Assembly: GCA_963813135.1 (NCBI GenBank)
Contig: CAWEXY010000011.1
Span: forward strand, 128,001 to 192,000
From: an uncultured Verrucomicrobiae bacterium
GTDB taxonomy: Bacteria; Chlamydiota; Chlamydiia; Chlamydiales; Rhabdochlamydiaceae
Length of the DNA: 64,000 bases
Direction: 5' to 3'
A model generated the notes under the pieces. That model ran no database searches and had not been told where the DNA came from. It saw only the letters and a program-made list of their open reading frames with translations. Shown one piece after another: positions 2,485 through 28,500 of this stretch. A program made the translations under genes and the position numbers. Each line of letters starts with the position of its first letter. Position 1 is the first letter of the stretch.

Positions 2485-5139
2485 ATGACAAAAATTGTAT
2501 CAACGATCTGTCATTCTGCCATTTTGCTTCAGGGAACTCTGCTCCCTAAAGAACATTTGTCCCCTCAGGAAAATGTTTTCCTCAGGCGCATTACTGAATT
2601 TTGGAAAGACAAGGATTATGCTCTCGTCAAAAAGCAAGTCATCGATTTTATCAGCGCCAATCCTCTTTCTCCTCTGACAGATCATCTCTATGCCATTTTG
2701 GGAGATCTCTATTTCCAAGAGAAAAATTATACCGAGGCCATCCAAGCCTATCGGCAAATCAACGTGGCCGAATTCCAAGAAAAAACACTCTATTCCCATG
2801 CATGCAGCCTCTATACAACCAATGACTACGCCGGCGTTGTCGCCCTGGCGCAGCCCTTCTACCAAAAGGGGACGCTGTCCCGCATCGACCGGGGGGAAGA
2901 AATCCATTCTATTTTAGGCGACAGCTTTTACCGCATCATTTCTGCGGAGGAAAATTCCGCTAAGAAAAAAGAACTCGCCGCTATCGCTAAACCTATCCTC
3001 CAATCTCTTGCCCCCAAAGAGCCCCGCGCGCTCCATTTCTTGGCCGACATCCACCGCCATCTCGGAGAATATCCTGAAGCATGCACCTTTTATATCCTCC
3101 TCGCCGACAAAGAAACGGACAAGAAAGAAGAGTTCTTGCTGCAAGCCGCTTCTTTGCAGCTCGACTTTGACAAAACTGCAGCTGCAGCAACTTACGGGAA
3201 AATAGCCGTTCTCGGCGGGCCGAAAGCTACGGAAGCTGCCTATAATCAATTCGCCCTGCTTTTCCAGGCGCAAAATTATGCAGAGCTGGCCTCTGCGCAT
3301 CAGGCCATTTCTGCCCACTTGGCCCCCGAACATCTCCCGCTTTTCCAACTTTGCCTCGGAAGGAGTTATTTTTTCCTAGAGAACTATAACGCTGCCGCCC
3401 AGAGTTTTGAAAAATATTTAGAAAATCAGAAAGACAAAGGCGCTCTTATCATGCTCCTTATTTGCGCGCAAAAAACAAGCGATACGGCTCTTTTTGACCG
3501 CGTAATGGATGATCTTGTCAAAGCGTATCCGCAAGATCCCGAAGTGGCGCAAGCGCTTCTTATTCACGCTCAACATGCGGTTGAAAAGCAGGATCTGTCC
3601 AAAGCAGCTTCTGATCTCGGAAAAGTTCTCGCCGAGTTTCCCAACATCGACAATAAAGAAGTCCTTCTCTACGACCATGCGCTGCTTCTTTCTCAAACAC
3701 AAAACTGGGGCGCCAGCCGCAATTCTTATCTCAAACTGCTTGAGCAGTTCCCCGGAACGGCGCATAAAACTCAAATCTATCAATTCTTGCTCACTTGTTC
3801 GATCGAGGGGCTCAAGGCATCTCCTGATGACGTCGAGGTTAAAAAACAGCTCGTCGGCGACCTCCAAAATGCTCTGCCCACTTTTTCTGATGATCAAAAA
3901 GCTTCATACCTCTTTCTCCTAGGCAAAGCACAGTTTGAGCTCGAACAATACAGCCAAGCGAGCGAGACGCTCCAATCTCTACTCACAGCTTATCCCGAAC
4001 ATCCATCGGCCCATGACGCTCATCTGCTGGCAGCGCTTTGCCAGCGCGAGCAGGGAATTTACGATAGCGCTTTTGCCGAACATGCGGAAAAAGCGCTCGC
4101 AGCAGCGCCTCTTGCCACTCCGATGCAGGCCCTGCACCGCGACCTTTTCAACGCCTATAGAAATCAAGGCAACTGGGAAAGAGCCGCTGAACATCTTTAT
4201 CAAGCTTATGTCGTTGGGAATGAATCCATCCAAGAAGATAACAAGATCTGGCTGGCTAGTTTTTACTTTGAAAAGGCCAAAGAGGGAGATAAGGCGGCCA
4301 AAGAAAAAGCCCTTGCGATTTACCCCAAGCTCCTATCCCTTGTCGGCGAGCAAATGACGCCGACAGCCGCTGTCATTCATCCGATGCTGGAAGCAGAAGT
4401 GCTCAAATTTTCTTCCCTCCTTCCTCAACCCAAGAAGGCGCTCCTCCTCTCCTCTTTGACGGATCTGCAAGAAAAGAACCCCCAGATCGAATGGAAGCTT
4501 GCACAACAGACGCTCTTCGAGCTAGGAAAGACCTATGCCTCCTTGCATGAGTCTCAAAAGGCCCTCGATATATTCAGCAACCTGATCCAGCCCTCCTCTC
4601 CTTCGTATTTCTCCTCAGCAGCCCAGCTCGAAAAGTCCCGCCTATTTTTCATTCTGTGCCCCGAAGAAAAGCGCAATGAGGAAAATCCTGAGATCGTAGA
4701 AGTTCTCAGCTCCCTCAAGGACCTTCAAATCCAGAAAAAAATCTATTCAGAGCCGCTCCACCTAGAGGCAGCGCTCGAATATGCCGATATCCGCACCTCT
4801 TTGGCCCCTTCGGAAAAGCGCATTGAAACTGCCCTCTTTTTCTTAAACCGCCTCAAAGAAGACTTTACCAATGCTGAAGATCCAGCTCTGCAAGAATATA
4901 GCGGCGCTAGCACAGCTTTTCCGGAGAAAAGCGCTCTCTACCACAACTATTTAAAATGCCTCGATGCCGAAATTAACAGGCTCCAAGCCCTCCAATGCCG
5001 TAAGACAAAAGACCTCGATACAGCCAAAACCCTAGAACAGTCGGCGCAAGCCCTCTTAACCGAAGTGCTCTCCTCTAAGAATGCAACCCCTTATCTCTTA
5101 GAGCGGGCCGAACTTAACTTGAGTGCCATACGACGATGA
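2485..5139 (+). CDS. Large tetratricopeptide-repeat protein
   Basis: 884 aa with repeated TPR-like helices (LYAILGDLYFQEKNYTEAIQAY, LFLLGKAQFELEQYSQASETL). Confidence 0.75.
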   Translation: MTKIVSTICHSAILLQGTLLPKEHLSPQENVFLRRITEFWKDKDYALVKKQVIDFISANPLSPLTDHLYAILGDLYFQEKNYTEAIQAYRQINVAEFQEKTLYSHACSLYTTNDYAGVVALAQPFYQKGTLSRIDRGEEIHSILGDSFYRIISAEENSAKKKELAAIAKPILQSLAPKEPRALHFLADIHRHLGEYPEACTFYILLADKETDKKEEFLLQAASLQLDFDKTAAAATYGKIAVLGGPKATEAAYNQFALLFQAQNYAELASAHQAISAHLAPEHLPLFQLCLGRSYFFLENYNAAAQSFEKYLENQKDKGALIMLLICAQKTSDTALFDRVMDDLVKAYPQDPEVAQALLIHAQHAVEKQDLSKAASDLGKVLAEFPNIDNKEVLLYDHALLLSQTQNWGASRNSYLKLLEQFPGTAHKTQIYQFLLTCSIEGLKASPDDVEVKKQLVGDLQNALPTFSDDQKASYLFLLGKAQFELEQYSQASETLQSLLTAYPEHPSAHDAHLLAALCQREQGIYDSAFAEHAEKALAAAPLATPMQALHRDLFNAYRNQGNWERAAEHLYQAYVVGNESIQEDNKIWLASFYFEKAKEGDKAAKEKALAIYPKLLSLVGEQMTPTAAVIHPMLEAEVLKFSSLLPQPKKALLLSSLTDLQEKNPQIEWKLAQQTLFELGKTYASLHESQKALDIFSNLIQPSSPSYFSSAAQLEKSRLFFILCPEEKRNEENPEIVEVLSSLKDLQIQKKIYSEPLHLEAALEYADIRTSLAPSEKRIETALFFLNRLKEDFTNAEDPALQEYSGASTAFPEKSALYHNYLKCLDAEINRLQALQCRKTKDLDTAKTLEQSAQALLTEVLSSKNATPYLLERAELNLSAIRR

Positions 5140-6933
5140 TGCGATCTCTACTTTCTAAATGCCTTTTCGCCTCTGTTGTCTTCCACCTCGTGTTGATTTG
5201 GATCTTTTTCTCGCATCCTCTCTTTTTACAGCCCTATTTCTCTTCTATCTTTGGGAAAACGACATCGATACCCCTAGAGGAAGAAGATATCGCTCTCTCA
5301 GAAAAGAACGTGTCGATGGAAGAAGTCTTTAATCAAATCATCGCCATGCCTCCGCGAAGGCAAGTTCCCTATGATTATGAACATGTGATTTCCGCCAAAT
5401 CCAAGCATAAGCCTTGCTTGGAGGAAAAAGCATCCGTCCCCACAACTCCTCTTGCCAAATCACTGCCCTCTACTACCTTGCCCAGAGGCTTTTTTCTTCC
5501 GCAGTCCGAATTTAAAACACCCGACTGGATGCTCGATGTCGCCGCGCGGCAAGAAGCGATCGCCTCCGCACCCCTTCCTCCGCTCGATCTCGACAAACCG
5601 TACCATTCTCTTCTTTTCGACGAACTCCGCCTCGACGCCCCGCAAATCGCCGGCGATATTCCCCAGCAGCAAAGCGGTTCCACCATCGCCCAAGGACACC
5701 TTCCATCCATCGAAGGCGAAGGCGCCGCTCCGAAAGGCCCTTCCAGTTCTACGCTTTTGCCCTCATCCTCTGCTCCCACAGGCGAGCTCATCGTATTTGC
5801 CGATCCCCAATCCCTGCATTTTAGCGATGCTCCCACACCTCAATCTGCATCTATCCCTTCGAATCCGCCAGGCGCCCCTTCGAAGCTCTCCGCGGCAAAT
5901 GCCCCCCTCCCAGCTTTATCTTCCTATGGCCTTCCTGATTCCTACGCCACAGCCGATTGGAGCTCGGATTTTCTCATCGATGTGCGCACTTACAAACGCG
6001 AAGAAGGCGGTTATCTTTTCTCCTTAACCGTCCTCCCCAAATACGATATGAGCGCCAAGCGCATGCCGCAAAACATTCTTTTTCTTGTCGATAGAACCAA
6101 TGCAGAAGGCAAACACCGCTTCCAAACTTTCAAACGCGCGATACTCCGCGCCCTTCCTTTCCTGCGCGAGGGAGACCGCTTTAATATCGCCGTCGTAGGC
6201 GATACCGTGCAAAAAATGAGCGAACTATCGCTCGTATTCAATAAAAAAACCGTCGCTAGAGCTGAAGAGTTTCTGGAAAGCGAAGTCTCTGTTTCTTCCG
6301 GCGGCAATATTTTTTCAAAGCTTCCTAAAGCTTCGCTCATGACTTACGAGGATTCAGAAGTTCCTTCGATCATTCTCCTTTCCGATGGAGGCGAAGAAGG
6401 AAAAAAGCGAGAGACAAAGCCGCAACATACGCGCATGGGTGGAGCAAAACAAAGGCGAAATCGCCCTCTATGCTGCTACCATCGGCCGCGAAAATAATAC
6501 CTATCTCCTCGATCTGCTCGCCACGCTCAGCCGCGGATTCCTCGTCAACTCCGATACCCACTCCGCCCTTCCCCGCAAAGTCGGCAAGCTCGTCCTCGAT
6601 CTCCGCTTCCCCTTGGCGAAAGAAATGTCCGCCACCATCTTGCAAGCCGATCCGGGCAGCCATATTGAAATCGTTCCTCCCTCTTTCCGCCTCCCCAATC
6701 TTTTCTGCGACCACCCCTTCACCATCTGGGGTAAAGCCGAAAAGCTCACCGACTTCACGCTCCTCATTGAAGGAAGAAACCGCGACCAGCTCCTCTCCAT
6801 CCAGGCGCCGATCTCCTTTGTTGGCGCGACACCTGACAACCACAAACTTCCCAAAGAGTGGGCGCTTCAAGAAAAAAATCTATCCTACGACGAATTCCTA
6901 AAAAATGGCACAGTTCCAAGTTCTAGCCGGTAA
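5136..6933 (+). CDS. Membrane-anchored vWA-domain protein, one frameshift near 6395
   Basis: N-terminal TM, Pro/Ser-rich linker, ILFLVDRT and IILLSDG vWA motifs; continues in ORF 6385..6933. Confidence 0.65.
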
Positions 6934-7459
6934 GCTGCGCGGCAGACCTCTGCAATCTCCCAAGGGAGAGCAGACGCGGCCCACCACGGCCCTTGTCCGC
7001 AAATCGGTCTTCGACACGCTCCGCCCCTATTTAGAAGACGCCCACGTCCTCGACCTCTTCGCCGGCAGCGGGGCTATCGGCATCGAAGCGCTGAGCAATG
7101 GCGCAGCCCATGCCACCTTCGTTGAAAACCATCCCCTCGCCCTTAAAGCCCTGCGCCACAACCTCCATTCCCTCGGCCTCGAAGACTCTTCCACCATCCT
7201 CGCTCTCGATGCCCACGCCGCCCTCAAAAAACTAAAGAACACCTTCGATGTCATCTACTCCGATCCTCCCTATGACCAGGCCTCTTTCCATACCACCCTT
7301 CTCAGCTTCCTCGATACGCATCCCCTGCTTCGTCCAGGCGGTTTTCTTTTTCTCGAAGAAGGACAGCCTGCTTCCTACGCATCCCTCGCCCACCTCACAT
7401 TCATCCGCACGCGCAGCTTTGGCAATGCCCACTTGCACCTATTCCGCTCCTCAATTTAG
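6905..7459 (+). CDS. rsmD: 16S rRNA m2G966 methyltransferase
   Basis: TRPTT, VLDLFAGSGAIGIEALS and DPPY motifs. Confidence 0.9.
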   Translation: MAQFQVLAGKLRGRPLQSPKGEQTRPTTALVRKSVFDTLRPYLEDAHVLDLFAGSGAIGIEALSNGAAHATFVENHPLALKALRHNLHSLGLEDSSTILALDAHAALKKLKNTFDVIYSDPPYDQASFHTTLLSFLDTHPLLRPGGFLFLEEGQPASYASLAHLTFIRTRSFGNAHLHLFRSSI

Positions 7460-7469
7460 ACTTAAGTCC

Positions 7470-8988
7470 ATGCTCTTTGCTGATCAAATCCTCGAACAGA
7501 TGACCATCGAAGAAAAAGTCGGCCAGCTCCTCATGTGCCATTTCACCGGAGAGACCGCCAACGAAGCTTCCAAGATTATTCTTGAACAAGCGCATGTCGG
7601 CGGCATCATTTACTATAATTTCTCCAACGGCCTTACAAGCCCTGCCCAAGTGCAGCAGCTCAGCATCGGCCTGCAGCAGGACGCAAAAATTCCCCTCCTC
7701 ATCGCCGCCGACCAAGAGACCGGCATCGTCGCGCGCCTGCGCTCCGGCTTTACTCTTTTCCCTGGCAACCGCTCGGTCGCCATGGCCGGCGATGTAACCC
7801 TCGCCCGCGCAGTGGCAAGGGCCGCCGCCGAAGAGATGAAAGCCGTCGGCGTCAACATGAACCTGGCGCCTGTCGTCGATGTCAATTCCAACCCTCAAAA
7901 TCCTGTCATCGGCATCCGCGCTTTTGGGTCCGATCCTGCCATCGTCACAAAATTCAGCATCGCGACCATGCAAGGCTACGATGACGAACAAGTCATCTCG
8001 TGCCCTAAACATTTCCCCGGCCATGGCAATACGACCGTCGATTCGCATGCCAATATTCCAGTCATCGCCGGCCCTATCGAAGCCGACCTCCAGCCTTTCT
8101 ACGCGCTTGCACGGAACATGCCCGCAGTCATGACAGCCCACATCCGGGCCGATAGCATCGATCCCGATCATGTCGCTACACTTTCCAAAAAAACACTCCA
8201 AGATCTCTTGCGCGAAGAAATGGGCTTTAAAGGAGTCGTCGTATCCGATTCCCTCGTCATGCAAGGCGTGCTCCAAGAATGCCCCTCCGTCGAAGAGGCC
8301 GCAGTCCGCGCTTTTGAAGCCGGTTGCGATATCTTGCTCCTTGGCGGCCGCCAGCTCGTCGGTTCCGAAAAAAAAAGAGCTAACACCCGAGCAAATTATT
8401 CAAGTCCATAAAACTCTTGTAACAGCCGTAAAAACAGGCCGTATCAGCAAAGACACGCTGGATGCTTCCGCCCTTCGCATTTTGCAGCTAAAAGAGAAAT
8501 ATGGCCTCTTTAAGCCCGTCCCACTCACGGACGACACGATTGCTCAGCATATCAAAACGCCAGAACATGAGGCCCTCGCCCAAAAAGTCGCCGCGCTCTC
8601 TGTCCGAACGCTTCACAACCATCTTCCACCAAAGTTTTCCTTAGAAAAAACACTAACTATTGCCCCGCAAACTCTGCAAACAGAGATCGATTGGGATGGA
8701 GAAAAAGTATTCTTTAAAGAATGCAACCCATCAGAACAAGAGATCACCGACTGTCTCACTAAAACCAAAGGCGCCGAGGCGATCATTCTTTTATCTTTCA
8801 ATGCATGGAAGTTTACAGCTCAACAAAAACTATTCACTGCTCTGAAAGAACAGGGCAAGACCATCATCGTCTTCTGCGCCCGCGATCCAGAAGATGCCCC
8901 TTTCTTTAAAGACGCTGATGCTTTGATCGCAACCTACGGTCCCATAAAACCATCGCTCGGCGCCGCTCGCAAACTATTGGAGAGATAA
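7470..8988 (+). CDS. nagZ: GH3 beta-N-acetylhexosaminidase, frameshift at poly-A about 8368-8377
   Basis: ADQETG, KHFPGHG, DSH and SDSLVM GH3 motifs; C-terminal domain in ORF 8170..8988. Confidence 0.85.
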
Positions 8989-9553: not shown

Positions 9554-12145
9554 CTAGATCTTTTTGCCTTTCTCCCACTTCGTCTCGGTGCAAACACCTT
9601 TTTCGTCATAGGATTTTTTCACACCTTGGAGTTGGTCGTCCACAAAGACTTGAAGCACTTGGGGCTTGCCATCATCGTAAAACTTATTCAATTTCCCGTT
9701 GCGAAGGCCCTCTTTGTACTCGCCCTCAAAAACGAGGACGCCTTTGTCATTCCAGTTTTGGCTAAGGCCATGGAGCTTGCCGTGCACATAGACCGCCTTG
9801 CTGGCGAGCTGGCCATTGGAATGATAGGTCTTCTCTTCACCGTGCCGTTCATCGGCGGCGTAGTAAGTTTCTAAAAGGACCTTGCCATCGGGAAAATACT
9901 CAAAGGCAGGGCCTTCTTTTTTGCCGTTTTTGAACAGGATCTTCATCACGATCTGCCCCTTGGGATTAAAAAGAGTGGCCTCCCCATCTTTTTCCCCATT
10001 CACATAAGGCGTCATGGCAAGTTTGTTCCCCGCCTCATCATACTCCGTAGCGATGCCTTCGGGCTTGTCTTTAACATAATTGGCCTCGACAGCCTTGACC
10101 TTGCCGAAGACCTCATGGAGCGGATAGTAAATTTCGTGGAGGCCTTGTTTGTGGTTATTTTCATAGTGGAAAACAAATTCGCGGCCATCAGGAAGCTTTT
10201 GAAAAAACCGCCCGTGCATTTTATCATCTTCATACCAGGCTTCTTCTGTTAAGTTGCCTTGCGGATCCCATGCGCCTTTCATGCCATGGAGCTTGCCATT
10301 TTTGTAAGCGACGATCATTTGTGTTGTGCCATCAGGATAAAATCTTTTCTCTTCCCCATGGAACTTACCCTCATCATTGAAACGGCGGTATCTGGAGATT
10401 TTTTGCTCTTTTTCACCCTCTTGCAAGCGATAATATTCTTTATGCTCCCCGATAGGCGTTCCTTCACGGTATGTTTGCTCTAAAGCGATCGTTCCATCTT
10501 CATAGAAGCTCTGAACAGGCCCGTCAATTTTGTCATTTTTGTAGTTAGCGCGGGATTTGAGGGTGCCATTCGCATAATAGGCTTCTTCTTTGCCCTCTTT
10601 TTTTCCTTTGACAAAGTTCGATTCTTGGCGAAGTTTATCTTTTTCGAACCAAAAACGGACTTTCCCGTTGATGACGCCGTCCTCGTAGGGCACTTCAGCG
10701 ATCAGATCGCCTTTTTCATTCCATTCTTTATGGACCCCGACTTTCTGAGCTTGGTCATATTTTTCTTGGATTTTCTGACGGCCATTCTCAAACCATCCCT
10801 TACGCTCCCCATCATTCTTGTCGGCAACGTAATGCTCGCTGACTTTGGGTTTTCCATTCTCATACCACTCTTCTGCTGGGCCCTCGCGAAGGCCCTTAAC
10901 AAGCGTGATGCGGATCGCAGGCTTCCCATCTTCATACCATTCTTCATAGGTTCCATCTTTGATGTGGTCTTTGAAAAAGGCATGTATGTGCAGCTGTCCT
11001 GAGGCGTAAAATTCTTTTTGCTCCCCTTCGAACTCCCCTTTATCGTAATGGAAATCGACTTTAGGTTTACCATCGTCATACCACTGTTGGAATGAGCCTT
11101 GCAGCTTGCCATCTACAATGGAATAACGAGCGATCTTTTGACCCGTCGCACTGAACTCCTCGATGGGGCTTTGCAATAATCCTTTATCATCGTAGAGCGC
11201 TAGGAAGCTAAGTTTTCCATTATCATGATGGCGCCAGTGCTTGCCGATCGGAGTCCCTGCTCGATATTCCCCTTCGCCCAGCAGTTGTCCAGTTTCAGAG
11301 AAAAATTGCTCTTTCCCGTCTTTTTTACCTTTTTTATAGGCGACCTTGAAGGCCTCTTTGCCATTTTTGTGGTAAACGAGATGGGTTCCGATCTGCTCGC
11401 CCTGCTGAAAATCTTGGACTTCTTGAATACCGTGGTCCTCATTGTAAACGACGACAGCAGGATGTTTCCCTTGAGAGTGGAGCAGTCCATTCTCAAAATG
11501 GCGCGCTATTTTCAGCGAACCGTTTTCATACCACTCAAAAGAGTCTCCATCGGGAACGCCGGCGGCATAATGAATGAGCGATGCGCGCGTGCCTTTGGGG
11601 AAATAACGGATATGATCCCCCACAGGCTTATCATCTTCAAAGGCTCCTTCCTCGGCTTTGACGCCATCGGCAAAATAGAACACCGAAGCGCCCGTCTTTT
11701 TTCCGGCGTTGCAATGAAACTGGGCTTTCAGTTGGTTCGAAGGATAAAAAAGTTTGACTTCGCCATGGGCCAGGCCGCGGCTGTATTGGGCCATGCGCTC
11801 CAATTTGCCATCTTCATAAAGGGCGACAAAAACTCCATGGGGAACGTAGCGGCTCTTCCATTCGCGGCTCGCAGCTTCTTCTTCGCTCACCTCGATCACA
11901 TCGGCTTCCACCTTGACTTGGCCATTGGGATAAAAAGCGATGAGTTTAAGCGGAATCTCAGCGCCCGTGTCGTCGACATCATAGAAAAGCACTTGAGAAG
12001 CCTGGCCTGAGGGATACAGCTCCAGCTCTTTGTAACGCCACTGCGGCTCGCGGGCTTTGAGGGCTGAGGCGACAGGAACGACCGGTTCGGCAGCAATACA
12101 AATAGAGGCCGCCAAAAAGATAAAGAAAAATTTTAAAATTTGCAT
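9554..12145 (-). CDS. Exported MORN-variant repeat protein (YwqK-like repeats)
   Basis: Signal peptide followed by many YxxGxxxGxxxxWYENG-type repeats over 863 aa. Confidence 0.8.
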   Translation of the reverse strand: MQILKFFFIFLAASICIAAEPVVPVASALKAREPQWRYKELELYPSGQASQVLFYDVDDTGAEIPLKLIAFYPNGQVKVEADVIEVSEEEAASREWKSRYVPHGVFVALYEDGKLERMAQYSRGLAHGEVKLFYPSNQLKAQFHCNAGKKTGASVFYFADGVKAEEGAFEDDKPVGDHIRYFPKGTRASLIHYAAGVPDGDSFEWYENGSLKIARHFENGLLHSQGKHPAVVVYNEDHGIQEVQDFQQGEQIGTHLVYHKNGKEAFKVAYKKGKKDGKEQFFSETGQLLGEGEYRAGTPIGKHWRHHDNGKLSFLALYDDKGLLQSPIEEFSATGQKIARYSIVDGKLQGSFQQWYDDGKPKVDFHYDKGEFEGEQKEFYASGQLHIHAFFKDHIKDGTYEEWYEDGKPAIRITLVKGLREGPAEEWYENGKPKVSEHYVADKNDGERKGWFENGRQKIQEKYDQAQKVGVHKEWNEKGDLIAEVPYEDGVINGKVRFWFEKDKLRQESNFVKGKKEGKEEAYYANGTLKSRANYKNDKIDGPVQSFYEDGTIALEQTYREGTPIGEHKEYYRLQEGEKEQKISRYRRFNDEGKFHGEEKRFYPDGTTQMIVAYKNGKLHGMKGAWDPQGNLTEEAWYEDDKMHGRFFQKLPDGREFVFHYENNHKQGLHEIYYPLHEVFGKVKAVEANYVKDKPEGIATEYDEAGNKLAMTPYVNGEKDGEATLFNPKGQIVMKILFKNGKKEGPAFEYFPDGKVLLETYYAADERHGEEKTYHSNGQLASKAVYVHGKLHGLSQNWNDKGVLVFEGEYKEGLRNGKLNKFYDDGKPQVLQVFVDDQLQGVKKSYDEKGVCTETKWEKGKKI

Positions 12146-17164: not shown

Positions 17165-18706
17165 CTAGATCTCCTCTATCGCGCTCGTGACGCGCACAAC
17201 TTCTGCGGTCGTGGTCTTTCCGGCATAAACAAGCTGGGCTCCAGCAGTGCGCAGCGACATCATGCCCGTGCCCTGCGTGGCCATGCGTATCGCTCCGGCA
17301 TCAGGACTTGTAATGATCTGCCGCCGAATGGCCGTTGTCATGGGCATGAGCTCATAAATACCGCACCTGCCTTTATAGCCGGAGCCGAGGCAAGCGTCGC
17401 ATCCCACCCCATGAGCAAAGGGACCGTCGCCTAGATAGGGCAGTTCGGCCCGTTCGATCTCGCTGGGGATATATTCTTTTTTGCATGCTGAGCAGATGGT
17501 CCGCACGAGACGCTGGGCGAGGACCCCGATCACGGAGGAGGACAGGAGATAAGGTTCTATGCCCATATCGATCAGGCGTGTAATAGCAGAAGGCGCGTCA
17601 TTGGTGTGGAGCGTGCTGAGAACGAGGTGTCCTGTGAGGGAAGCTTGGATGGCGATTTCTGCCGTCTCGCGGTCGCGGATTTCTCCGATCATGATGACAT
17701 CGGGATCTTGGCGAAGGATATGACGCAGGCCCGTGGCAAAATCGAGCCCGATTTTCGATTGGACGCCCATCTGCGCCATTTTGGGAAGCTTGTATTCGAC
17801 GGGATCTTCGATGGTCATGATGTTGATCTCGTCGCTGCTCAGTTCCATGAGCGCGCTGTAAAGGGTGGTCGTTTTTCCGCTGCCGGTAGGCCCGGTGACC
17901 AGAATGATCCCTTCGCTCATCTTGAGCAGTTTTTCGAGGCCTTCCAGCACCGGGGAGGGCATGCCCAGCTTGGGAAGGCCGAGAAGGATGTTGCTTTTGT
18001 CCAAGATCCGCATGACGACGCGCTCTCCAAAAACGACAGGGATCGTGCTCACGCGAAAATCGATATGGCGCATGCCGAGCTTGAGTTTGATGCGTCCATC
18101 TTGGGGCAGCCGCTGCTCAGCGATATCGAGGGCCGCCATCACTTTAATACGGGCGATGAGCTGAGTTTGAAGATCTTTAGGCGGAGCATGCCGCGTTTGG
18201 AGAACGCCGTCGATGCGGTAGCGGACGACGAGGCCTCCCTCCTGCGGTTCAAAATGGATATCGGAAGCCCCTTGCTGGATCGCTTCCGTCAAAATCGAAT
18301 TGAGAAGCCGGACGGACGTCGCGTCCGATGTCTGCTCGAGCAGATCGTATTCGGCGCCTTCATCCGCTTCGTTTTCTCGATCGCCGGCCAGGGCCGCGAT
18401 CAGCTGCGTGGTCGCTTGTTCTTGCTGATGAAAGCATCGCTCGATGGCTTCTTCGAGAGCGTTTAAGGGAGCGCAGATTTCTTTTGTCTTTTGTCCTGTA
18501 AAGCACCGGACTTCTTCGATCGCTTCGAGATCGAGGGGATCTGCAACAGCGACGATGAGGCGCCCCCCTTCTTCTCCAATAGGCAGCAAGCGCCTGTGCT
18601 TGGCCATGGCATAGGGGATTTTTTGCACTTTGTTCTGCACGAAAGGGTATTCGAGCAGAGAAGAGATGTAAGGAAGACCAAATTGACTGGCTATTTCCTG
18701 GCTCAT
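17165..18706 (-). CDS. gspE: Type II secretion ATPase
   Basis: ASDIHFEP, GPTGSGKTTTLY, LRQDPDVIMIGEIRD, STLHTN and Cys Zn motif. Confidence 0.95.
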   Translation of the reverse strand: MSQEIASQFGLPYISSLLEYPFVQNKVQKIPYAMAKHRRLLPIGEEGGRLIVAVADPLDLEAIEEVRCFTGQKTKEICAPLNALEEAIERCFHQQEQATTQLIAALAGDRENEADEGAEYDLLEQTSDATSVRLLNSILTEAIQQGASDIHFEPQEGGLVVRYRIDGVLQTRHAPPKDLQTQLIARIKVMAALDIAEQRLPQDGRIKLKLGMRHIDFRVSTIPVVFGERVVMRILDKSNILLGLPKLGMPSPVLEGLEKLLKMSEGIILVTGPTGSGKTTTLYSALMELSSDEINIMTIEDPVEYKLPKMAQMGVQSKIGLDFATGLRHILRQDPDVIMIGEIRDRETAEIAIQASLTGHLVLSTLHTNDAPSAITRLIDMGIEPYLLSSSVIGVLAQRLVRTICSACKKEYIPSEIERAELPYLGDGPFAHGVGCDACLGSGYKGRCGIYELMPMTTAIRRQIITSPDAGAIRMATQGTGMMSLRTAGAQLVYAGKTTTAEVVRVTSAIEEI

Positions 18707-21012
18707 GGGTTCGTAAATACTCTCAAGCTTTGTTGGAAAATCTTGCGGCGGTCTTTATCGCGGGCATCGGCGACACGCTTGACGAATTCAGGGAGGTCGC
18801 CGGGTCTTTTTTTAAGCTCCTCGGTCCGCATCTGGCGCAGCTGCTCTGCCGAGTCGTAGACAATGCGCGGAGTGATAAAGAAAAACATCTCTGTCTCCCT
18901 ATCTTCTAAGTGCGTCGAGCCAAACAGCTTGCCAATGCCGGGGATTTCCCCCAGGAAGGGAACTTTTTCTTGAACATCTTGCTTCGTTTTGCGCCTTAGG
19001 CCCCCGAGGATGATGGTTTCTCCATCGACGACGCACACTTCGTTCTCGACGTGTCTTCGATCGACAAAGGGCTGATCGTCGCGTAAATCTTCCGTTTTAG
19101 GCGTATCAAACGTGACATCGGTCTTGAGCGTCACCCGGCCTTTTTCCTCTCCGGGCTCAGGAAGATGGATCGTGGGCGTCATTTTGATGATCGTTCCATA
19201 CTGCACGCGAGAAAACGACTTTTCAAAGGTCGTTCCCTTATTCGTATCGACCGGCGCCGCGCCATTGTTGATCGACCGTTCTTCGACAATCGTGATCATG
19301 GCCGGCGTCTGGTTGACAGCGGTCACCGAAGGAGAATTGTTGAGTTGGACATCTTCGAGGGTCATGAGAAAATTATAAGCGATATCGAACTTGGGCGTGT
19401 ACTTATGCGCTGGGCCGTGGAAGAAAAACTGGAGCACGCCGTGCACCGCTGAGTTAAGTCCTTTGGAAATATCGATGTGAGGGGGCACGCGTGGCGTGTA
19501 CTGCGCCCCGTTGCTTGATTTGCCCAGTCTTAAAAGATTCAGCCCAAAATTATTGCGCGTATTGAGGCGGCGTTCGAATAAGAGCACCTCGATCTCGACC
19601 ATCTTTTTCGGCACGTCCAATTTTTTCAACAGCTCTTTCACGCGGTCGAGGACATCGCGCCTAACGGTCATGAGGAGAGATCCGGTCTTGGGGTCGGGAA
19701 TAAAATGTTCGGTATATCCGCGTTCCACTTCTAGCTGCGCCGAGACGCCGGGCTTCATGGGAGGAGGAGAGACGACGAGCGGAGGCGTCGGGGGATACCC
19801 TTCAGGGACGCGGCCGCCTCCAGAATTTTGGGCAGAAAAATTAAAATCCGTTTCTTTGGTCGGCCCTTCAGCATTCGCATGGATGAGCGACACATAGACT
19901 TTCTCGAGCACCTGCGCCAGGTCGACAGGATCGCTATTTTTACATTGATAAAGATAAACGGTCATCTCGGCAGGGTCTTGCAGCTGCTCTTCCGTCTCTT
20001 TAACGATCGCTTCGGCCCGATCGACGGTCTCTTTAGAACCGATCAAGACCAGCGTATTGCTCTGCCCTAGAGGAAAAACGGAAAGCCCTTCTTGGTCGGC
20101 CCTAGCAAAAGGAGGTTTTCCTTTATCGAGAGCTTCGCCAAAAAATGTGGTTAAAATCTTTTCCATCTCGCGCACTTGCATCTTCGTGACCGACACGACC
20201 TTGGCCATCTTTCCTTCTTGCCCTTGCCATACCGTGCTATACAGGGCGAGGAGCTTCTCGATCTCTTCTTTCGAGCCTACCAGGGCGATCTTCCCGCCGA
20301 TTTGATGGATAAATGTTTGCTTGCTGTCGCTGAACTTCTCAAAAAATTGAAACACCGACTTTACTTGTTCGATCGGAGGAGATAGCAAGAAGAACAACCG
20401 GCTGCCAGGCGCTACCCAAGCGAGGTCTTCGCTGCGGGCGGCGATCGTTTGGATCGCTGAATAATCTTGCTTCAGCACATAGAGCTGCCTAGCATAGGGG
20501 CCCGCCTTCTTGACGCCGATTCCGCTCTGCATGAGGACAATTTCGAGCACATTGCTCCACGCCTCGCGCGGAATGGGGATCGCCGAATGCAAAGAGAGTT
20601 TCATCGCTGAAAGTTCGGGCGGGACGACATACAGAAAATCGGGGGATCCGTACTCCATAACGAGCTGGCCGAGCGTGGTCTCCTCCTGATCCCATAGGGC
20701 ATACCCGTCTTCATCTTTGCGCGCCTGCATGACGGCCCCTTCGCGCCACTGGTCTTGCAAGGCGGCGATCGAGCTCTTCAACGCTTTGGTTTGCTGCAAA
20801 AGTTCCGCAAACTCCTCATCCGCCGCGCCCTTCTTATGCAGTTCTTGAGCTTTCACAAGGCATCCTTCCAGCTGCTTGCGCATAGAAAAGAGTTTGTCGT
20901 TAACCCCCTGCACTTCGGATTCTTTGGCGCTTTCTTTCTGCGACGCTGCTGCTTTCTTATCCGCAATACTGGTCGCAAAAAGAAGAGAAGGGAGGAGGAG
21001 GAGATAAATCAT
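18703..21012 (-). CDS. gspD: Type II secretion secretin
   Basis: Signal peptide; LDVPKKMVEIEV; GETIILGGL..KVPFLGEIPGIGKLF secretin C-terminus. Confidence 0.9.
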   Translation of the reverse strand: MIYLLLLPSLLFATSIADKKAAASQKESAKESEVQGVNDKLFSMRKQLEGCLVKAQELHKKGAADEEFAELLQQTKALKSSIAALQDQWREGAVMQARKDEDGYALWDQEETTLGQLVMEYGSPDFLYVVPPELSAMKLSLHSAIPIPREAWSNVLEIVLMQSGIGVKKAGPYARQLYVLKQDYSAIQTIAARSEDLAWVAPGSRLFFLLSPPIEQVKSVFQFFEKFSDSKQTFIHQIGGKIALVGSKEEIEKLLALYSTVWQGQEGKMAKVVSVTKMQVREMEKILTTFFGEALDKGKPPFARADQEGLSVFPLGQSNTLVLIGSKETVDRAEAIVKETEEQLQDPAEMTVYLYQCKNSDPVDLAQVLEKVYVSLIHANAEGPTKETDFNFSAQNSGGGRVPEGYPPTPPLVVSPPPMKPGVSAQLEVERGYTEHFIPDPKTGSLLMTVRRDVLDRVKELLKKLDVPKKMVEIEVLLFERRLNTRNNFGLNLLRLGKSSNGAQYTPRVPPHIDISKGLNSAVHGVLQFFFHGPAHKYTPKFDIAYNFLMTLEDVQLNNSPSVTAVNQTPAMITIVEERSINNGAAPVDTNKGTTFEKSFSRVQYGTIIKMTPTIHLPEPGEEKGRVTLKTDVTFDTPKTEDLRDDQPFVDRRHVENEVCVVDGETIILGGLRRKTKQDVQEKVPFLGEIPGIGKLFGSTHLEDRETEMFFFITPRIVYDSAEQLRQMRTEELKKRPGDLPEFVKRVADARDKDRRKIFQQSLRVFTNP

Positions 21013-23597: not shown

Positions 23598-23729
23598 GGC
23601 TGCCGCCGCCCGCCAAGACCCAAGGGGAAGGAGACAAAGAGGAGACCAGAAAGAGAAAAAAAATTCCTAAATCCCCCAATGGTCCAAGGGCCAATGCCCT
23701 AAAAGAACTTCCTAAGACCCCCAACGCCG
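23598..23729 (-). repeat. Conserved 3' block (last 10 codons plus ~100-nt non-coding element), copy 1; candidate DGR IMH region
   Basis: 132 bp identical to 26546-26677 except 2 positions. Confidence 0.9.
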
Positions 23730-26383
23730 TTGTAGAAGCTGTCGAAGTAGTAGTCGACGCTGAGACCAGCGGCCCCAAAACCCCCAACGCCCAATTGCAA
23801 ATCCTTATTATACTTCTCTTGACATCGTGTATACGTCCAGGGGCCTTCGCTATACAGCTTTGTTCCGGTGCGGACATGTTCCATTAATACAGCAACAGTC
23901 GCATCTAATACAGTCGGCAATTCGTATGGCGCTTTAATAAGTGCTTTCTGATCGCTGTAGCTTTTGTCTCGGCTCCCTTCAATGACATCTCGGGTTAGAA
24001 GCGCCCAATGCGACTTAGCAGCAGGTGCATCGGTATACTCTCCTAGATCGAAAGATAGATATTTCGTGGCTGTTCCTTGAAGGGGCTTTTCGATGAGCTC
24101 GCCTAGCGTTTTTAAGGTCAGGGGCTTTCCATTGACGGTTTTAGGAACGAGGACAAGGAGATGGGTCTCTTGCACTTTCTTTTGGGGCCAATAAGGACAA
24201 GAGCTTTGGAGAATGGCGTTGATATCGGCAGGAAGAGGCGGCTCAACTCCGACATCTCCAAAATACTTGGCCCACTCAGCCTTGCCAAAAGCGATAGAAG
24301 GCAGCACGGCTTTATTAGCAGGTGCCTTGGGGATGCTCTCTATGGGTCTGTCAGCAAGTGTCAATGTGTTTGATGGATAAGAAATTCTACTTTCAATAGG
24401 GAGTTCCTGCGCTTTATTGGGTTTAGGTGACTCGACTTGTTCGGCAGGAGGGACTGCTTGGGATGCTGCGGGTTGAGGGTTATCAGGGATGAACTTCCGA
24501 AGACCCCCAACACCGATCTCAATGTGGAGGCGGTTGATGATGGAGTCATCGAAGTTATTTTCGAAGACGTTGAGGCCTCTGGCCCCAAAGCTTCCAACAA
24601 GCAAATGATGATCAGTATTATCCTTTTCTTGACACTGCGTAAATGTCTTGGGGCTGTCGCCATACAGTTTTATCCCAGTCCGGACATGTTCCATTAATAT
24701 GGCAACAGTCGCATCTAAAACGGTGGGAACTTCATACGACGCTTTGGATTTGATAAAAGCTTGCTGATCGCTGTATTTTTTTCCGCTCCCTACTACGATA
24801 CCTCTGGTCATAAGCACCCAATGCGATTTAGCAGCGGGGGCTTCGTATCCTAGAGAGAAAATGGCATAACTCGCGGGTGTTCCTTCGAGGGGCCTTGGGA
24901 TAAGCTCGCCTAGCGTTTTTAGGGTCAGGGGCCTTCCATTGACGGTTTGAGGAACGAGAACGAGAAGATGGGTCTCTTGCACTTTCTTTTGGGGCCAATA
25001 AGGACAAGAGCTTTGGAGAATGGCGTTGATATCGGCAGGAAGAGGAGGCTCAACTCCGACATCTCCAAAATACTTGGCCCACTCAGCCTTGCCAAAAGCA
25101 ATAGAGGGAAGAGCAGCTTGGGGTGGAGGCGGTGCTTTCACGGGAACTACTGCAGGAGGTGGAGTCTGCGCCGATCCTTGGATTAGTTCGATGAGGTCTT
25201 TGGCTACTGGTTTACGAATTTTTTTATTTGCATCAAAGAGTTTCTGCGTTAATCGATAAACTTGTCGATCTTGCTCTGTTAGAGAAGATGCACTGTTGAG
25301 TTTTCTGGTTTGTTTTTCAAGGCTAGTGCGGAGGGATTCCATGTTCTGCACTTCTTCATTCTCTAAAATGCTGTAAATGTAGTCGAGAAGTGCATCTGGC
25401 AAAAGATTGTGGGAGCTGAGATCAGGAGTAGGTGTAGGAGGCATAGAAAGGGTTGCATTATTTGAGAGGTAAGGATCTTCCTTGCTTTCGGTAGTCGCTG
25501 AAAGAGTAGCAAAATTAGAAGGATAAGATCCATTGTTCTCGAATACAGGAAGAGGTTGATTAGGATCCGTGGTAAGACGAACTAGGTCTTCGGCTAGATT
25601 TTGGGCCTTGGGTCGCTGCGCAGGATCTTTCCAGCATTGCTTAATGATATCGGCAAAGGCTGGGGGTGTCTCAGATGGAATAGTTTCAGAAACGTTGTTC
25701 ATTTTCCATGCAAGGACGACCATTTCGTTAGCCGCGTTGCTATAGGGGGCTTTTCTCGCAGCAATCTCCCATAAAACCATCCCCATACTGTAAATATCGG
25801 TCTTAGTGCTAGCAGAGGCGTTTTGGCTGATTTGTTCGGGAGCCATCCAGCGCGGAGATCCCCCTTGACTGGTAAGATGGGTCTTTGTTTCATCCCGGAC
25901 TTTGGCAAGTCCAAAGTCGGTGATCTTAGCGGTATCATCTTTGGCGATCAGGATGTTTAAGCTTTTGAGGTCACGATGAACGATGTTGCGGCCGTGGAGA
26001 TAAGCAAGCCCTTTGCCGATGTCGGCTGCAATACTGTAGCGCCGGTTCCAGGGAAGATCTTCGGGCCTTTGTAAAAATTTATCAAGGGAGCCTTTTTCGA
26101 GATATTCCATGAGGATGGCGAACTTGCCTTCTTCTGCGCAAATGCCCAACATCTGAACGATATTGGGATGTTTGCACTGGGCCATGATTTGAGCTTCGTT
26201 CTTGAACATATTTAGAAATTGGTCGTCAATGATTTGCACGAGGAGTTCTTTGACGGCAATGGGAGTTGCTTGCCAATTCCCAAGGTAGACTTGGCCAAAG
26301 CCTCCTTTCCCAAGGAATTTTCCTTTGCTGAAATCCCTTGAGGGAATAGCTTCCAGTTGGACGATGATATTTGGAATGGCCAT
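23699..26383 (-). CDS. TKL-like Ser/Thr kinase fused to two copies of a GVGGLRKF-ending domain; candidate DGR target
   Basis: GKGGFG, IAVK, HRDLKSLN, DFG, WMAPE motifs; duplicated PSIAFGKAEWAKYFGDVG...GVGGLRKF domain; terminal run of NNC codons. Confidence 0.9.
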   Translation of the reverse strand: MAIPNIIVQLEAIPSRDFSKGKFLGKGGFGQVYLGNWQATPIAVKELLVQIIDDQFLNMFKNEAQIMAQCKHPNIVQMLGICAEEGKFAILMEYLEKGSLDKFLQRPEDLPWNRRYSIAADIGKGLAYLHGRNIVHRDLKSLNILIAKDDTAKITDFGLAKVRDETKTHLTSQGGSPRWMAPEQISQNASASTKTDIYSMGMVLWEIAARKAPYSNAANEMVVLAWKMNNVSETIPSETPPAFADIIKQCWKDPAQRPKAQNLAEDLVRLTTDPNQPLPVFENNGSYPSNFATLSATTESKEDPYLSNNATLSMPPTPTPDLSSHNLLPDALLDYIYSILENEEVQNMESLRTSLEKQTRKLNSASSLTEQDRQVYRLTQKLFDANKKIRKPVAKDLIELIQGSAQTPPPAVVPVKAPPPPQAALPSIAFGKAEWAKYFGDVGVEPPLPADINAILQSSCPYWPQKKVQETHLLVLVPQTVNGRPLTLKTLGELIPRPLEGTPASYAIFSLGYEAPAAKSHWVLMTRGIVVGSGKKYSDQQAFIKSKASYEVPTVLDATVAILMEHVRTGIKLYGDSPKTFTQCQEKDNTDHHLLVGSFGARGLNVFENNFDDSIINRLHIEIGVGGLRKFIPDNPQPAASQAVPPAEQVESPKPNKAQELPIESRISYPSNTLTLADRPIESIPKAPANKAVLPSIAFGKAEWAKYFGDVGVEPPLPADINAILQSSCPYWPQKKVQETHLLVLVPKTVNGKPLTLKTLGELIEKPLQGTATKYLSFDLGEYTDAPAAKSHWALLTRDVIEGSRDKSYSDQKALIKAPYELPTVLDATVAVLMEHVRTGTKLYSEGPWTYTRCQEKYNKDLQLGVGGFGAAGLSVDYYFDSFYNGVGGLRKFF
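23729..23761 (-). other. Candidate DGR variable region VR1
   Basis: Sense codons agc gtc gac tac tac ttc gac agc ttc tac aac: 11 of 11 end in C. Confidence 0.7.
24515..24571 (-). other. Decayed internal variable-region copy
   Basis: 19 codons at the same domain position, 14 ending in C; lacks the downstream element. Confidence 0.6.
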
Positions 26384-26545
26384 AACTGCATCTCCGTTGG
26401 TTAATCAGTATGGAGATGATAAACGAAGGGGCCTTTTAATGAAAAAATAAATGATGGGTGCCCAGATCGATGATTTTATCTCCCCTTCAAAAAATGAAAA
26501 CTTCATGCATGAGATTTTAGAGCTGGTTGCAAAATTCCACCGGCT

Positions 26546-26677
26546 GGCTGCCGCCGCCCGCCAAGACCCAAGGGGAAGGAGACAAAGAGGAGACCAGAAA
26601 GAGAAAAAAAATTCCGAACTCCCCCAATGGTCCAAGGGCCAATGCCCTAAAAGAACTTCCTAAGACCCCCAACGCCG
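26546..26677 (-). repeat. Conserved 3' block, copy 2; candidate DGR IMH region
   Basis: 132 bp matching 23598-23729 with 2 mismatches. Confidence 0.9.
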
Positions 26678-28500
26678 CAGTTGACGAAGTCGTAGCCGGC
26701 GTGGACGTAGCCGGAGTGGAAGTTGTCGATAGAGAGACCAGCGGACCCACACCACCCAACAGCCAATTGCTCATTCTTATTAAACCTTTCTTGACACCGT
26801 GTATACCTCCTCGCACAGAAGTCGCTATTGAGCTCGTTTCCGCGCACATGTTCCATTAATATAGCAACGGTCGCATCCAATATAGTTGGCACTTCATAGC
26901 GCAATTTAACCACTGGCACTTCATGCTCATTAATAAGCGCTTTCTGATCGCTGTAGTTTTTGTTTAGGCTTCCTTCAATGACATCACGGGTTAGAAGCGC
27001 CCAGTGCGACCTAGCAGCGGGTGCATCAGTATACTCACCAAAGTCAAAAGGGTTTGGGTCACGACGCTGCAAGTGCCAATTATCAGGGATTAAATTATGG
27101 TACCTTAAAAGGTTATATCGTTCATACCTTAAATCGCGATATTGTGTAGGCCTTCCTTGGCGGGGCTTTAAGATGAGCTTGCCGAGCGTTTTTAGGGTCA
27201 GGGGCTCTCCATTCACCATTTGAGGAACCAGAACGAGGAGATGAGTCTCTTGTACTTTCTTACGAGGCCAAAATGGGCAGGGAGCTGCCAAGATAGCGTT
27301 GATAGCGCCAGGAAGTGGAGGTTCTACCCCCACATCTCCAAAATATTTGGCCCACTCTGCCTTGCCAAAAGCGATCGAGGGCAGCACGGCTTTATTAGCA
27401 GGTGTTTTGGGGATGCTCTCTATGGGTCTGTCAGCAAATGTTGTTGTGTTGGATGGATAAGAAAGCACACTTTCAGTAGGGAGTTCCATTGGCTTGTTGG
27501 GTTGGGCAGGTTCAGCTTTATTGAGACGAGCTGGGGGCAAAGATTTTGTGGCAAGCGCCATTGCGTTTGATAGATAAGAAATTCTACTTTCACTAGGAAG
27601 CTCTAGCGCTTTATTGGGTTGGGCAGGAGATACACTCGCGGCTATTGGATGGTCGAGGTTTTGGTGTTTGGCTCTTTCCTGGAGCTGGTTTAATTCTAAA
27701 GCTATTGTTTTGGCGAGAGGACGCTCGAGGGGAAGTTTCCAGCATTTTTGTATGAGGGCTCCATATTCTTCGGGACAATCAGAGGGGATGGTTTCATGGG
27801 TGTTGTTCATTTTAGCTGCTATGACCATGTATACGTTGATGGCGTGGCTATAGGGTGCCCTGCGGGCGGCGATTTCCCAGAGGATCATGCCGAAGCTGTA
27901 GATGTCGGTAGCAAAACTAGCTGGGGCATTTTGGGTAAAATGTTCGGGAGCCATCCAACAAGGAGATCCTGCGAGCTGATTGGTGGTCATTTGGGTGCTG
28001 GTCTCGGATCTGATTTTGGCGAGGCCAAAATCGGAGATCTTGGCGATATCTTTGGCGAGGAGGATGTTGTGGCTTTTGAGGTCGCAGTGGATGACTTTTT
28101 GGCTATGGAGGTACAAAAGTCCTTTTCCTATGCCGGCAGCGATAGTAAAACGGCGGGTCCATTCTAAGGAAATATCTTTATTCTTTAGTATGCCGTAGAG
28201 GGAGCCTTCTTCGAGATATTCCATGATGAGGGCAAATTTTCCTTCTTCTAAACACAGACCAAATAATCTGACGATATTGGGATGTTGGCACCCGGCCATG
28301 AGCTCGGCTTCGCTGCGGAATATTTTCAAAAAGTCATTGGTCATTGACTGAACTAAGAGTTCTTTCACGGCGACAGGGGTGGTTATCTGCCATTTGCCAA
28401 AATAGACTTTCCCAAATCCCCCCTGGCCTAACTCTCTTTCTTTGGTGAAGTCATCCGATGGTATAGTGGGAAGCTTGGGCGCGATGCTGGGAATGGCCAT
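26647..28500 (-). CDS. TKL-like Ser/Thr kinase (non-RD) fused to one GVGGLRKF-ending domain; candidate DGR target
   Basis: GQGGFG, VAVK, HCDLKSHN, DFG, WMAPE motifs; same C-terminal domain; terminal NNC run. Confidence 0.9.
   Translation of the reverse strand: MAIPSIAPKLPTIPSDDFTKERELGQGGFGKVYFGKWQITTPVAVKELLVQSMTNDFLKIFRSEAELMAGCQHPNIVRLFGLCLEEGKFALIMEYLEEGSLYGILKNKDISLEWTRRFTIAAGIGKGLLYLHSQKVIHCDLKSHNILLAKDIAKISDFGLAKIRSETSTQMTTNQLAGSPCWMAPEHFTQNAPASFATDIYSFGMILWEIAARRAPYSHAINVYMVIAAKMNNTHETIPSDCPEEYGALIQKCWKLPLERPLAKTIALELNQLQERAKHQNLDHPIAASVSPAQPNKALELPSESRISYLSNAMALATKSLPPARLNKAEPAQPNKPMELPTESVLSYPSNTTTFADRPIESIPKTPANKAVLPSIAFGKAEWAKYFGDVGVEPPLPGAINAILAAPCPFWPRKKVQETHLLVLVPQMVNGEPLTLKTLGKLILKPRQGRPTQYRDLRYERYNLLRYHNLIPDNWHLQRRDPNPFDFGEYTDAPAARSHWALLTRDVIEGSLNKNYSDQKALINEHEVPVVKLRYEVPTILDATVAILMEHVRGNELNSDFCARRYTRCQERFNKNEQLAVGWCGSAGLSIDNFHSGYVHAGYDFVNCGVGGLRKFF
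26677..26733 (-). other. Candidate DGR variable region VR2
   Basis: Sense codons tct atc gac aac ttc cac tcc ggc tac gtc cac gcc ggc tac gac ttc gtc aac tgc: 18 of 19 end in C. Confidence 0.7.

Follow-up and report, generated by a model that had tools for sequence, protein, structure and literature searches.

How did two neighboring protein kinase genes of a chlamydia-like bacterium come to end in loops in which almost every codon has C at its third position (NNC codons)? The genes, k1 and k2, lie on the minus strand of a 64,000-nucleotide (nt) stretch of DNA, here called the window, from contig CAWEXY010000011.1 of assembly GCA_963813135.1, an uncultured member of the Chlamydiales. An earlier note, made from the letters of the window, attributed the loops to a diversity-generating retroelement (DGR) residing elsewhere in the genome. 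The codon pattern, with 72 of 73 codons being NNC in five loops of this genome, indicates that both kinase loops were probably written by a DGR, and recently so, the probability being about 0.85.

Terminal Loops of the Two Kinase Genes

Both proteins have an N-terminal kinase domain, which is the only part detected by Pfam, and both end, as had been claimed, in the same domain, a homologous module of about 195 amino acids (aa). The parts of the two genes that matter here are the following.

23699-26383, minus strand: k1, open reading frame (ORF) of 894 aa, with Pfam PK_Tyr_Ser-Thr (PF07714) at aa 21-267 (3.1e-61)
24491-25075, minus strand: internal (first) domain copy of k1, with a decayed loop at 24515-24571, followed by coding sequence instead of a TTGG array
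23702-24286, minus strand: C-terminal domain of k1, 195 aa, C-type-lectin/FGE fold by model, without Pfam or NCBIfam family
23765-23794, minus strand: 5' constant flank of VR1, adenine-free in the codon read-out
23726-23764, minus strand: VR1, the putative variable region (loop) of k1, an unbroken run of 13 NNC codons, with 8 codons between it and the stop
23699-23725, minus strand: 3' constant block of k1, 8 codons and the stop, a candidate homing boundary similar to an IMH (initiation of mutagenic homing) site
23599-23698, minus strand: non-coding conserved stretch after the k1 stop, with three TTGG motifs 7-8 nt apart, then a pyrimidine tract and a GC-rich end
26647-28500, minus strand: k2, ORF of 617 aa, with the Pfam kinase domain at aa 20-267 (1e-56) and one copy of the C-terminal domain, bearing an insertion in the alignment
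26674-26730, minus strand: VR2, the putative variable region (loop) of k2, an unbroken run of 19 NNC codons, likewise with 8 codons between it and the stop
26647-26673, minus strand: 3' constant block of k2, identical to the k1 block
26547-26646, minus strand: non-coding conserved stretch with TTGG array after k2, from paralog comparison

Across the whole genes, C occupies the third position in 261 of the 895 codons of k1 (29%) and in 206 of the 618 codons of k2 (33%). A test restricted to codon pairs whose members differ only by T or C at the third position gave T:C counts of 0:13 in the k1 loop versus 223:195 in the rest of the gene, and of 0:19 in the k2 loop versus 130:145. Arithmetic from these counts puts the chance of such loops at about 5e-5 for k1 and 5e-6 for k2, and the statement that the rest of the genes lacks the bias was correct. 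The 11/11 NNC codons reported at 23729-23761 form the inner part of the 13-codon run of VR1. In the 18/19 reported at 26677-26733 the odd codon is TCT, and the uninterrupted run of 19 is that of VR2. The 33 nt upstream of VR1 (23762-23794) are free of adenine, as described, and consist of the 5' flank together with the CTC codon at 23762-23764.

Run length alone does not make these loops unique. NNC runs of at least 10 codons are common: stop-free frames of this genome contain over 100, most of them within genes rich in third-position C (C3), so the loops are unusual relative to their own genes and not by length in the genome at large. When the 437 runs of at least 8 codons were scored against the C3 level of their own frame, six loops of the domain family were among the first 14, each of them ending 8-9 codons short of the stop.

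The catalytic motifs HRD/HCD, DFG, and APE are visible in the translations of k1 and k2. The best solved relatives of the k1 kinase domain are CTR1 (6e-50), CSK, MLK, RIPK1, TAK1, and B-Raf, that is, kinases of the tyrosine kinase-like and tyrosine kinase groups (TKL/TK), and all of the solved relatives listed (60/60) are eukaryotic. By sequence, both kinase domains are of eukaryote type and TKL/TK-like, as the earlier note had called them.

Paralogous Domains in the Same Genome

At least 11 copies of the domain are encoded in this genome. The genes that contain the five loops mentioned above have only 21-33% NNC codons elsewhere. Differences between paralog loops of equal length, counted at the first, second, and third codon position, are 5/7/0, 6/7/1, and 7/7/1 for the three comparisons. 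Variation is thus found at codon positions 1-2 and without stops, at the positions that an AAC-type template would mutate, and the template signature predicted for the loops is present. A comparison of k1 with its nearest paralog over the 450 nt that precede the loop gives 13/8/33 differences, the usual third-position excess.

The flanks have remained constant. The 27 nt 3' of the loop are identical (27/27) in k1, k2, and two paralogs of contig C15, which extends what had been seen for the two kinases. In the 100 nt after the stop, k1 and k2 are identical at 98/100 positions (23599-23698 vs. 26547-26646), and paralogs share 93-98%. Upstream of the loop (450 nt), k1 and k2 match at only 311/485 positions, and the coding parts of paralogs are 64-88% identical despite the near-identical 3' flanks.

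One paralog, at G000:C15:21062-21640 (L030 4063-4464; G000 is the genome studied here), has three in-frame stops, yet its loop is 11/11 NNC. The 3' block of 27 nt is identical in this pseudogene as well, and its TTGG array is retained. Codon selection is thereby excluded as the cause of the pattern, and a mutational writing process could explain it. Other loops of the genome have decayed, with NNC codons at 14/19 in the internal copy of k1, 6/13 on contig C19, 10/12 on C3, and 10/12 on C23.

DGR Cassettes in Related Genomes

The relatives sampled were 101 genomes of the same family, with Avd scored in G004 and G045 only. Reverse transcriptases (RTs) of 348-362 aa adjoin copies of the domain in G004, which belongs to the same genus, and in G045, G044, and G010. 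A fifth domain-adjacent RT, in G009, is interrupted by two contig ends. The G004 RT matches 8ub7_A over its full length at 4.2e-42, versus 3e-19 for group II intron RTs; the match record names 8ub7_A only "Reverse transcriptase," and we take it to be the RT of BPP-1. The G004 enzyme carries LGNVTSQ and a YCDD box, and the GxxxSQ motif marks DGR RTs. The small ORF beside it is Avd (NF033474, 88 bits at a cut-off of 80), and the Avd of G045 matches bAvd PF22296 at 1.7e-17.

Self-comparison of these loci uncovered a non-coding copy of the gene end, in which a run of AAC codons lies between the same constant blocks. The part of the template repeat that matches the 5' constant flank is again free of A, and the homology between template and variable region stops within the matching 3' block, at GGAA. 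Mismatches between the two fall at template A in 19/26 cases in G004, 46/48 in G045, 16/17 in G044, and 10/10 in G010, i.e., 91/101 overall, against an A content of about 23% in the template cores. One decayed G004 copy accounts for five of the ten mismatches at other bases. The count left out two variable regions, namely the first local G004 target, which has a deviating 5' block, and one of three remote copies in G045. Restriction of mismatches to adenines, on which the earlier note had staked its proposal, is thus borne out to this degree by the templates of the relatives.

Targets may lie far from the cassette. One remote variable region of G004, on contig C7, equals the C3 template in length and has 7/8 of its mismatches at A, and in G045 about 280 kb separate remote variable regions from the cassette. 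The domain that carries the loops of the kinases also carries the variable regions of the G004, G045, and G044 cassettes (alignment A1), and that of G010 is located in a more divergent form of it. Judged from these genomic sequences, complete DGR cassettes composed of a bRT-like RT, Avd, an AAC-rich template, and a variable region exist in G004, G045, G044, and G010.

In both G004 (L025 7661-8035, plus) and G045 (L026 7953-8435, minus), avd separates the template repeat from the RT and has the opposite orientation, so that a transcript from template to RT would run antisense through avd. The two genera also have in common a conserved block that precedes the template repeat on its upstream side (L025 8150-8330, minus; L026 7700-7860) and could be a promoter or a part of the template RNA. 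Lengths are not strictly kept. Five aligned G045 variable regions, from L026 and L108, exceed the template at L026 7861-7952 by 1 or 3 nt (four have one more codon and one is frameshifted), those of G044 and G010 are 3-6 nt off template length, and one G004 region (L025 5172-5300) has two additional codons. Either AAC units have disappeared from the templates, or the AAC run is prone to slippage when it is copied. The segment L026:4260-4520 was considered as a second G045 template and rejected, being a gene fragment.

In a sample of 300 genomes from the phylum, 19, belonging to at least eight families, have RTs of the same clade. Those at G181:C1:111554-112594, G130:C36:5627-6649, G319:C355, G294:C4, G264:C27, and G123:C69 have in-frame stops or are fragmentary, which suggests that the element has often decayed among chlamydia-like lineages.

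Fold and Family of the C-Terminal Domain

An AlphaFold2 model of the C-terminal domain, based on a 22-sequence alignment, has a mean predicted local distance difference test score (pLDDT) of 94 and a predicted template modeling score (pTM) of 0.92. The solved structures matched by VIA-align include the Bd2740 C-terminal domain (Z 7.5), EgtB (7.2), TvpA (2y3c, 7.1), pFGE (6.8), Lcl (6.4), Mtd (1yu0, 6.0), and TaqVP (4.9), followed by many animal C-type lectins. Nearly all of this list has the C-type lectin/FGE fold, and it includes three solved DGR variable proteins. A Foldseek search of the PDB gave nothing at E <=0.001, the best match being the C-terminal domain of Legionella Lcl at 0.059. 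The domain of k1 and k2 is confidently predicted by the model to have a C-type-lectin/FGE fold, as had been supposed, with the variable loop at its extreme C-terminus.

No family for the domain was found in Pfam and NCBIfam searches. A profile search among 1.84 billion representatives returned 3,898 proteins at E <=0.001, 1,159 of them at <=1e-30, with up to six copies of the domain per protein. The domain occurs in 41/101 sampled genomes of the same bacterial family, and its homologues are named "hypothetical protein" in their sources almost throughout. Among 120 listed homologues, 56 have a Pfam partner; the N-terminal partners are PARP (16), U-box (14), kinase (12), F-box (4), TIR (3), HEAT/ARM (3), LRR (2), TPR only (1), and NACHT-type NTPase (1), where the accessions are those that we take to be TIR, HEAT, LRR, and NACHT (PF05729). 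The targets linked to cassettes are of similar kinds, with F-box-like N-termini in G010 and, weakly, in G004, U-box/RING together with TPR in G045 and G009, and PARP in G045.

A further locus, L038 from a Parachlamydiales genome, has a DGR with its template at 5520-5604 and targets at 7149-8057 and 9632-10609. These targets end in a divergent variant of the domain, to which the A1 profile is blind, and their N-terminus is F-box-like by eye. The target end resembles the GFxCAR motif of FGE-type domains.

TTGG Array and Other 3' Elements

An array of TTGG motifs, spaced by 7-9 nt, follows every intact variable-region end, with 2-6 motifs per 60 nt in four genera. In a control of 1524 gene ends the mean was 0.28 TTGG, and three or more were present in only 0.46%. 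The arrays are located as follows.

23650-23698 and 26598-26646 of the window: TTGG arrays after k1 and k2
L025, L026, L027, L028, L108, L110, L111, L128, and L129: TTGG arrays in other loci

The template repeats, the decayed internal copy of k1 (60 nt downstream), and one tandem paralog are not followed by a TTGG array. From its distribution, the array is a candidate for a target-marking cis element of this DGR clade.

As to a possible 3' cis element, the 27-nt block is identical and the 100 nt with the TTGG array are conserved, and no significant hairpin was found. The 156 nt after the variable region, folded as DNA, gave a z of -1.93, with 6/200 shuffles as stable. A 5-bp stem at the stop codon was rejected as a hairpin element, as it is not retained in all copies. 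The template-to-RT transcripts of G004 and G045 contain no CCAA array that could serve as pairing partner of the TTGG motifs. Rfam gave nothing near any gathering score for the G004 template region and the window.

Origin of the Kinase Loops

In the explanation favored here, the last loop in the C-type-lectin-fold domain of each kinase would be a variable region written by a DGR. A pair of RT and Avd would copy an RNA template repeat of AAC codons and misread its adenines, as in the relatives, and the cDNA would replace the loop between the two constant blocks, leaving stop-free NNC codons and, with them, a new binding surface. This surface would be tethered to a eukaryote-type kinase here and to F-box, U-box, PARP, or TIR in relatives. 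The RT, Avd, and template of this genome would lie in the unassembled part or would have been lost very recently. We infer that the same machinery as that of the relatives wrote the loops of k1 and k2.

A number of results weigh against this explanation. The assembly, which is 82% complete with about 18% of marker genes absent, contains no RT (PF00078, E <=1) and no bAvd (PF22296, E <=1). In it, tblastn with four chlamydial DGR RTs reached a best E of 0.2, short-word BLASTN of both variable regions returned paralogous variable regions only and no A-rich copy, and no 12-codon window has more than five AAC codons. The cassette of G004 sits between rpsL and a 663-aa gene, and here the two genes are 85 nt apart; the homologue of the 663-aa gene runs off the contig end and resumes on another contig. 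The five DGR-bearing relatives are without a domain-fused kinase, their best kinase matches being at most 39% identical and located elsewhere in the genome, so that a matching template was found for none of the kinase-linked variable regions. A metagenome scan for a template-matched kinase fusion yielded two related loci, with an RT in neither contig. The loops are unequal in length (11, 13, and 18 variable codons), unlike the product of one template; this is offset by the variable regions of G004, G045, G044, and G010, which also deviate by 1-6 nt from their own templates. Finally, every fold match has a Z below 8, rated middling by VIA-align, so that the fold call rests on the consistency of the match list.

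The DGR acting in trans that the earlier note had envisaged is matched by the remote targets of relatives, but its RT, Avd, and template were not found in this assembly and the syntenic site is empty. The same division applies to the non-coding, A-bearing copy beside an RT that a BLASTN search was expected to reveal: this assembly gave paralogous variable regions only, and the relatives gave the cassettes described above. Template and RT are missing from the assembly and are present in close relatives.

The missing machinery could mean that a DGR wrote the loops and that the element has since been lost from the lineage, the loops being frozen relics. Besides the empty syntenic site, this agrees with the occurrence of the domain in 41/101 family genomes, of which only about 5-6 have an RT of the clade beside it, with the broken or fragmentary RT genes of six chlamydia-like genomes, and with the decayed loops in the present genome, the internal loop of k1 included. 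Against it stands the state of the intact loops. In the complete genome G046, which has no RT, loops have decayed to between 6/12 and 9/14 NNC, and in other RT-less relatives to about 65-85%; the 72/73 found here in five copies, one of them a pseudogene beyond selection, argues for recent writing and against a long-lost element. In addition, about 18% of the marker genes are absent from the assembly, and a short, repeat-bracketed segment with RT and Avd is easily lost from a draft, as illustrated by the G009 RT cut at two contig ends. Loss from the lineage is thus possible, if somewhat doubtful, and the odds that the element is still present but unassembled in this genome are roughly even to slightly better. 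A search among metagenome runs found only soil or unlabelled ones, containing no more than 0.18 of the sampled words, and the four that were used yielded 15 contigs of 151-194 nt at depth 2-5, none over VR1 or VR2. An origin without any retroelement, in which Tyr/Asp/Asn/Phe/Gly-rich surface loops acquired C-ending codons by local preference or composition and paralogs came to differ by mutation or gene conversion, could draw on the genes that favor C-ending codons and on the more than 100 long NNC runs elsewhere in the genome. It is very improbable, since the balanced T:C counts outside the loops, the concentration of loop differences at codon positions 1-2 with 0-1 at position 3 per pair, the survival of the signature in a pseudogene, and the alignment of homologous loops of relatives to AAC templates with nine-tenths of the mismatches at A all contradict it, and short-word BLASTN revealed no donor copies for gene conversion.

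A further alternative keeps the same DGR chemistry and concerns the role of the domain, which would be a diversified conflict or defense sensor, e.g., of phage proteins, triggering the kinase, TIR, or PARP to which it is fused. TIR, PARP, kinase, and an NTPase that we take to be of NACHT type are among the partners; DGR-diversified FGE-type sensors are described in bacterial conflict systems in the available part of PMC7159879, and kinase-linked DGR targets of cyanobacteria in that of PMC7517822. Such a role is unlikely, because the F-box and U-box partners (18/120 listed homologues) require the eukaryotic ubiquitin machinery, the F-box/U-box families of Parachlamydiaceae are interpreted as host-directed in the accessible text of PMC4209131, the solved kinase relatives listed are without exception eukaryotic, and the organism has the nucleotide-parasite transporters of intracellular bacteria.

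Function and Significance

Preference is accordingly given to host-directed enzymes over an internal sensor. Most likely, the DGR would serve an obligate intracellular bacterium by giving its host-directed enzymes new partners. Secretion of the kinases into the host is suggested by the eukaryote-type partner domains and by markers of an intracellular lifestyle, including three TLC nucleotide transporters encoded here (0/14 control genomes). In its broadest form, the proposal is that a DGR allows environmental chlamydiae to retarget a whole arsenal of host-directed enzymes (kinase, F-box, U-box, PARP, TIR), with a host target that is changeable within generations and a TTGG array that replaces the classical hairpin; it is put forward tentatively, at somewhat less than even odds.

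The diversified module would represent a new kind of DGR target, being carried by enzymes that are thought to be sent into a eukaryotic host (kinase, F-box, U-box, PARP, and TIR proteins). If this is true, the aim of host-manipulating proteins is reprogrammed by targeted hypermutation, which bears on how amoeba symbionts and other chlamydia-like organisms keep pace with varied hosts. The wider pattern would be an environmental-chlamydial DGR clade that targets fusions with eukaryote-type enzymes. A large unnamed domain family (about 3,900 representative clusters) is defined, which annotation pipelines leave blank, and the TTGG array provides a testable cis element. The present case also illustrates that variable regions may look pristine while the draft assembly is without the machinery.

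Other Observations in the Assembly

By eye, the C-terminal motifs of the large ORF at 18703-21012 (minus strand), upstream of the kinases, suggest an outer-membrane channel of the secretin type. At G000:C18:26553-26670 there are about 117 cytosines in a row (39 CCC codons), likely an assembly artefact. On contig G000:C14 (L035), matches to fusA, rpsG, and rpsL at 3024-6116 are broken across frames, which suggests frameshift errors or a low-quality contig.

Comparison with Known Systems

Most of the DGR targets known are receptor-binding proteins of phages, surface proteins, or adhesins. In the openly searchable full-text literature, subscription-only papers being outside reach, no chlamydial DGR and no DGR-diversified effector-type proteins are described, in line with the supposition of the earlier note that DGRs had not been described for Chlamydiota. 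The DiGReF paper, in the part available, places 0.6% of DGR entries under "Chlamydiae/Verrucomicrobia group" without detail. In Roux et al. (2021), again in the parts available, taxonomy is lumped as Planctomycetes-Verrucomicrobia-Chlamydiae (PVC; "Bacteria:PVC"), and "Chlamydi" has 0 occurrences in the parts of the supplements searched, chlamydial entries being possible under the PVC lump. Chlamydial DGRs may thus be unnoticed within existing catalogues.

The bacteria of the candidate phyla radiation (CPR) and the DPANN archaea are DGR-rich lineages. The nearest RTs outside chlamydia-like genomes come from CPR bacteria and a DPANN archaeon and are 42-49% identical over almost the full length. 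The target-domain profile, applied to loci L038-L107, found nothing beside the CPR/DPANN RTs and gave a single match, beside a 63%-identical RT in a PVC-labelled genome.

Cyanobacterial DGRs diversify kinases and other regulatory or signaling proteins, and, as far as the available text goes, they share with the present genes the coupling of a kinase to a DGR-diversified C-terminal module (PMC7517822). They differ in that the chlamydial RT is only 24-28% identical to the RTs of Nostoc, Fischerella, and Calothrix, and that the kinase here is of the eukaryotic TKL/TK type and belongs to an intracellular bacterium. The F-box, U-box/RING, and BTB families of Parachlamydiaceae likewise have eukaryote-type ubiquitination domains at the N-terminus in large paralog families of the same bacterial family, but their C-terminal parts are LRR repeats according to the accessible text (PMC4209131), the main text of which, where available, mentions no retroelement, reverse transcriptase, hypervariable region, or kinase. 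In the ternary conflict systems of multicellular bacteria, a DGR-diversified domain of FGE/C-type-lectin type is also fused to other domains; the accessible part of the report has it fused to vWA components, in cyanobacteria and gammaproteobacteria, and the words "chlamydia" and "endosymbiont" are absent from the main text to that extent (PMC7159879).

The BPP-1 DGR (Mtd, bRT, bAvd) is similar in its machinery, as seen from the full-length match of the sister-genome RT and from the Avd family matches. It is also similar in having an AAC-rich template with mismatches at adenines and a variable region at the extreme C-terminus of a C-type-lectin fold, that of Mtd. In the chlamydial system, however, the target is an enzyme fusion and not a phage receptor-binding protein, avd is antisense between template and RT, and the variable regions are followed on the 3' side by an array of TTGG direct repeats, without significant hairpin (z -1.9) and without Rfam match at the template. 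TvpA of Treponema denticola (2y3c) and TaqVP of Thermus aquaticus (5vf4) have in common with the C-terminal domain of the kinases the fold and a variable loop at the C-terminus (139 residues aligned at Z 7.1 and 140 at Z 4.9, respectively), at 7-9% identity and with no common Pfam family. TvpA and TaqVP are stand-alone proteins of the surface type, whereas the domain described here forms the C-terminal part of proteins with kinase, PARP, U-box, F-box, or TIR domains.

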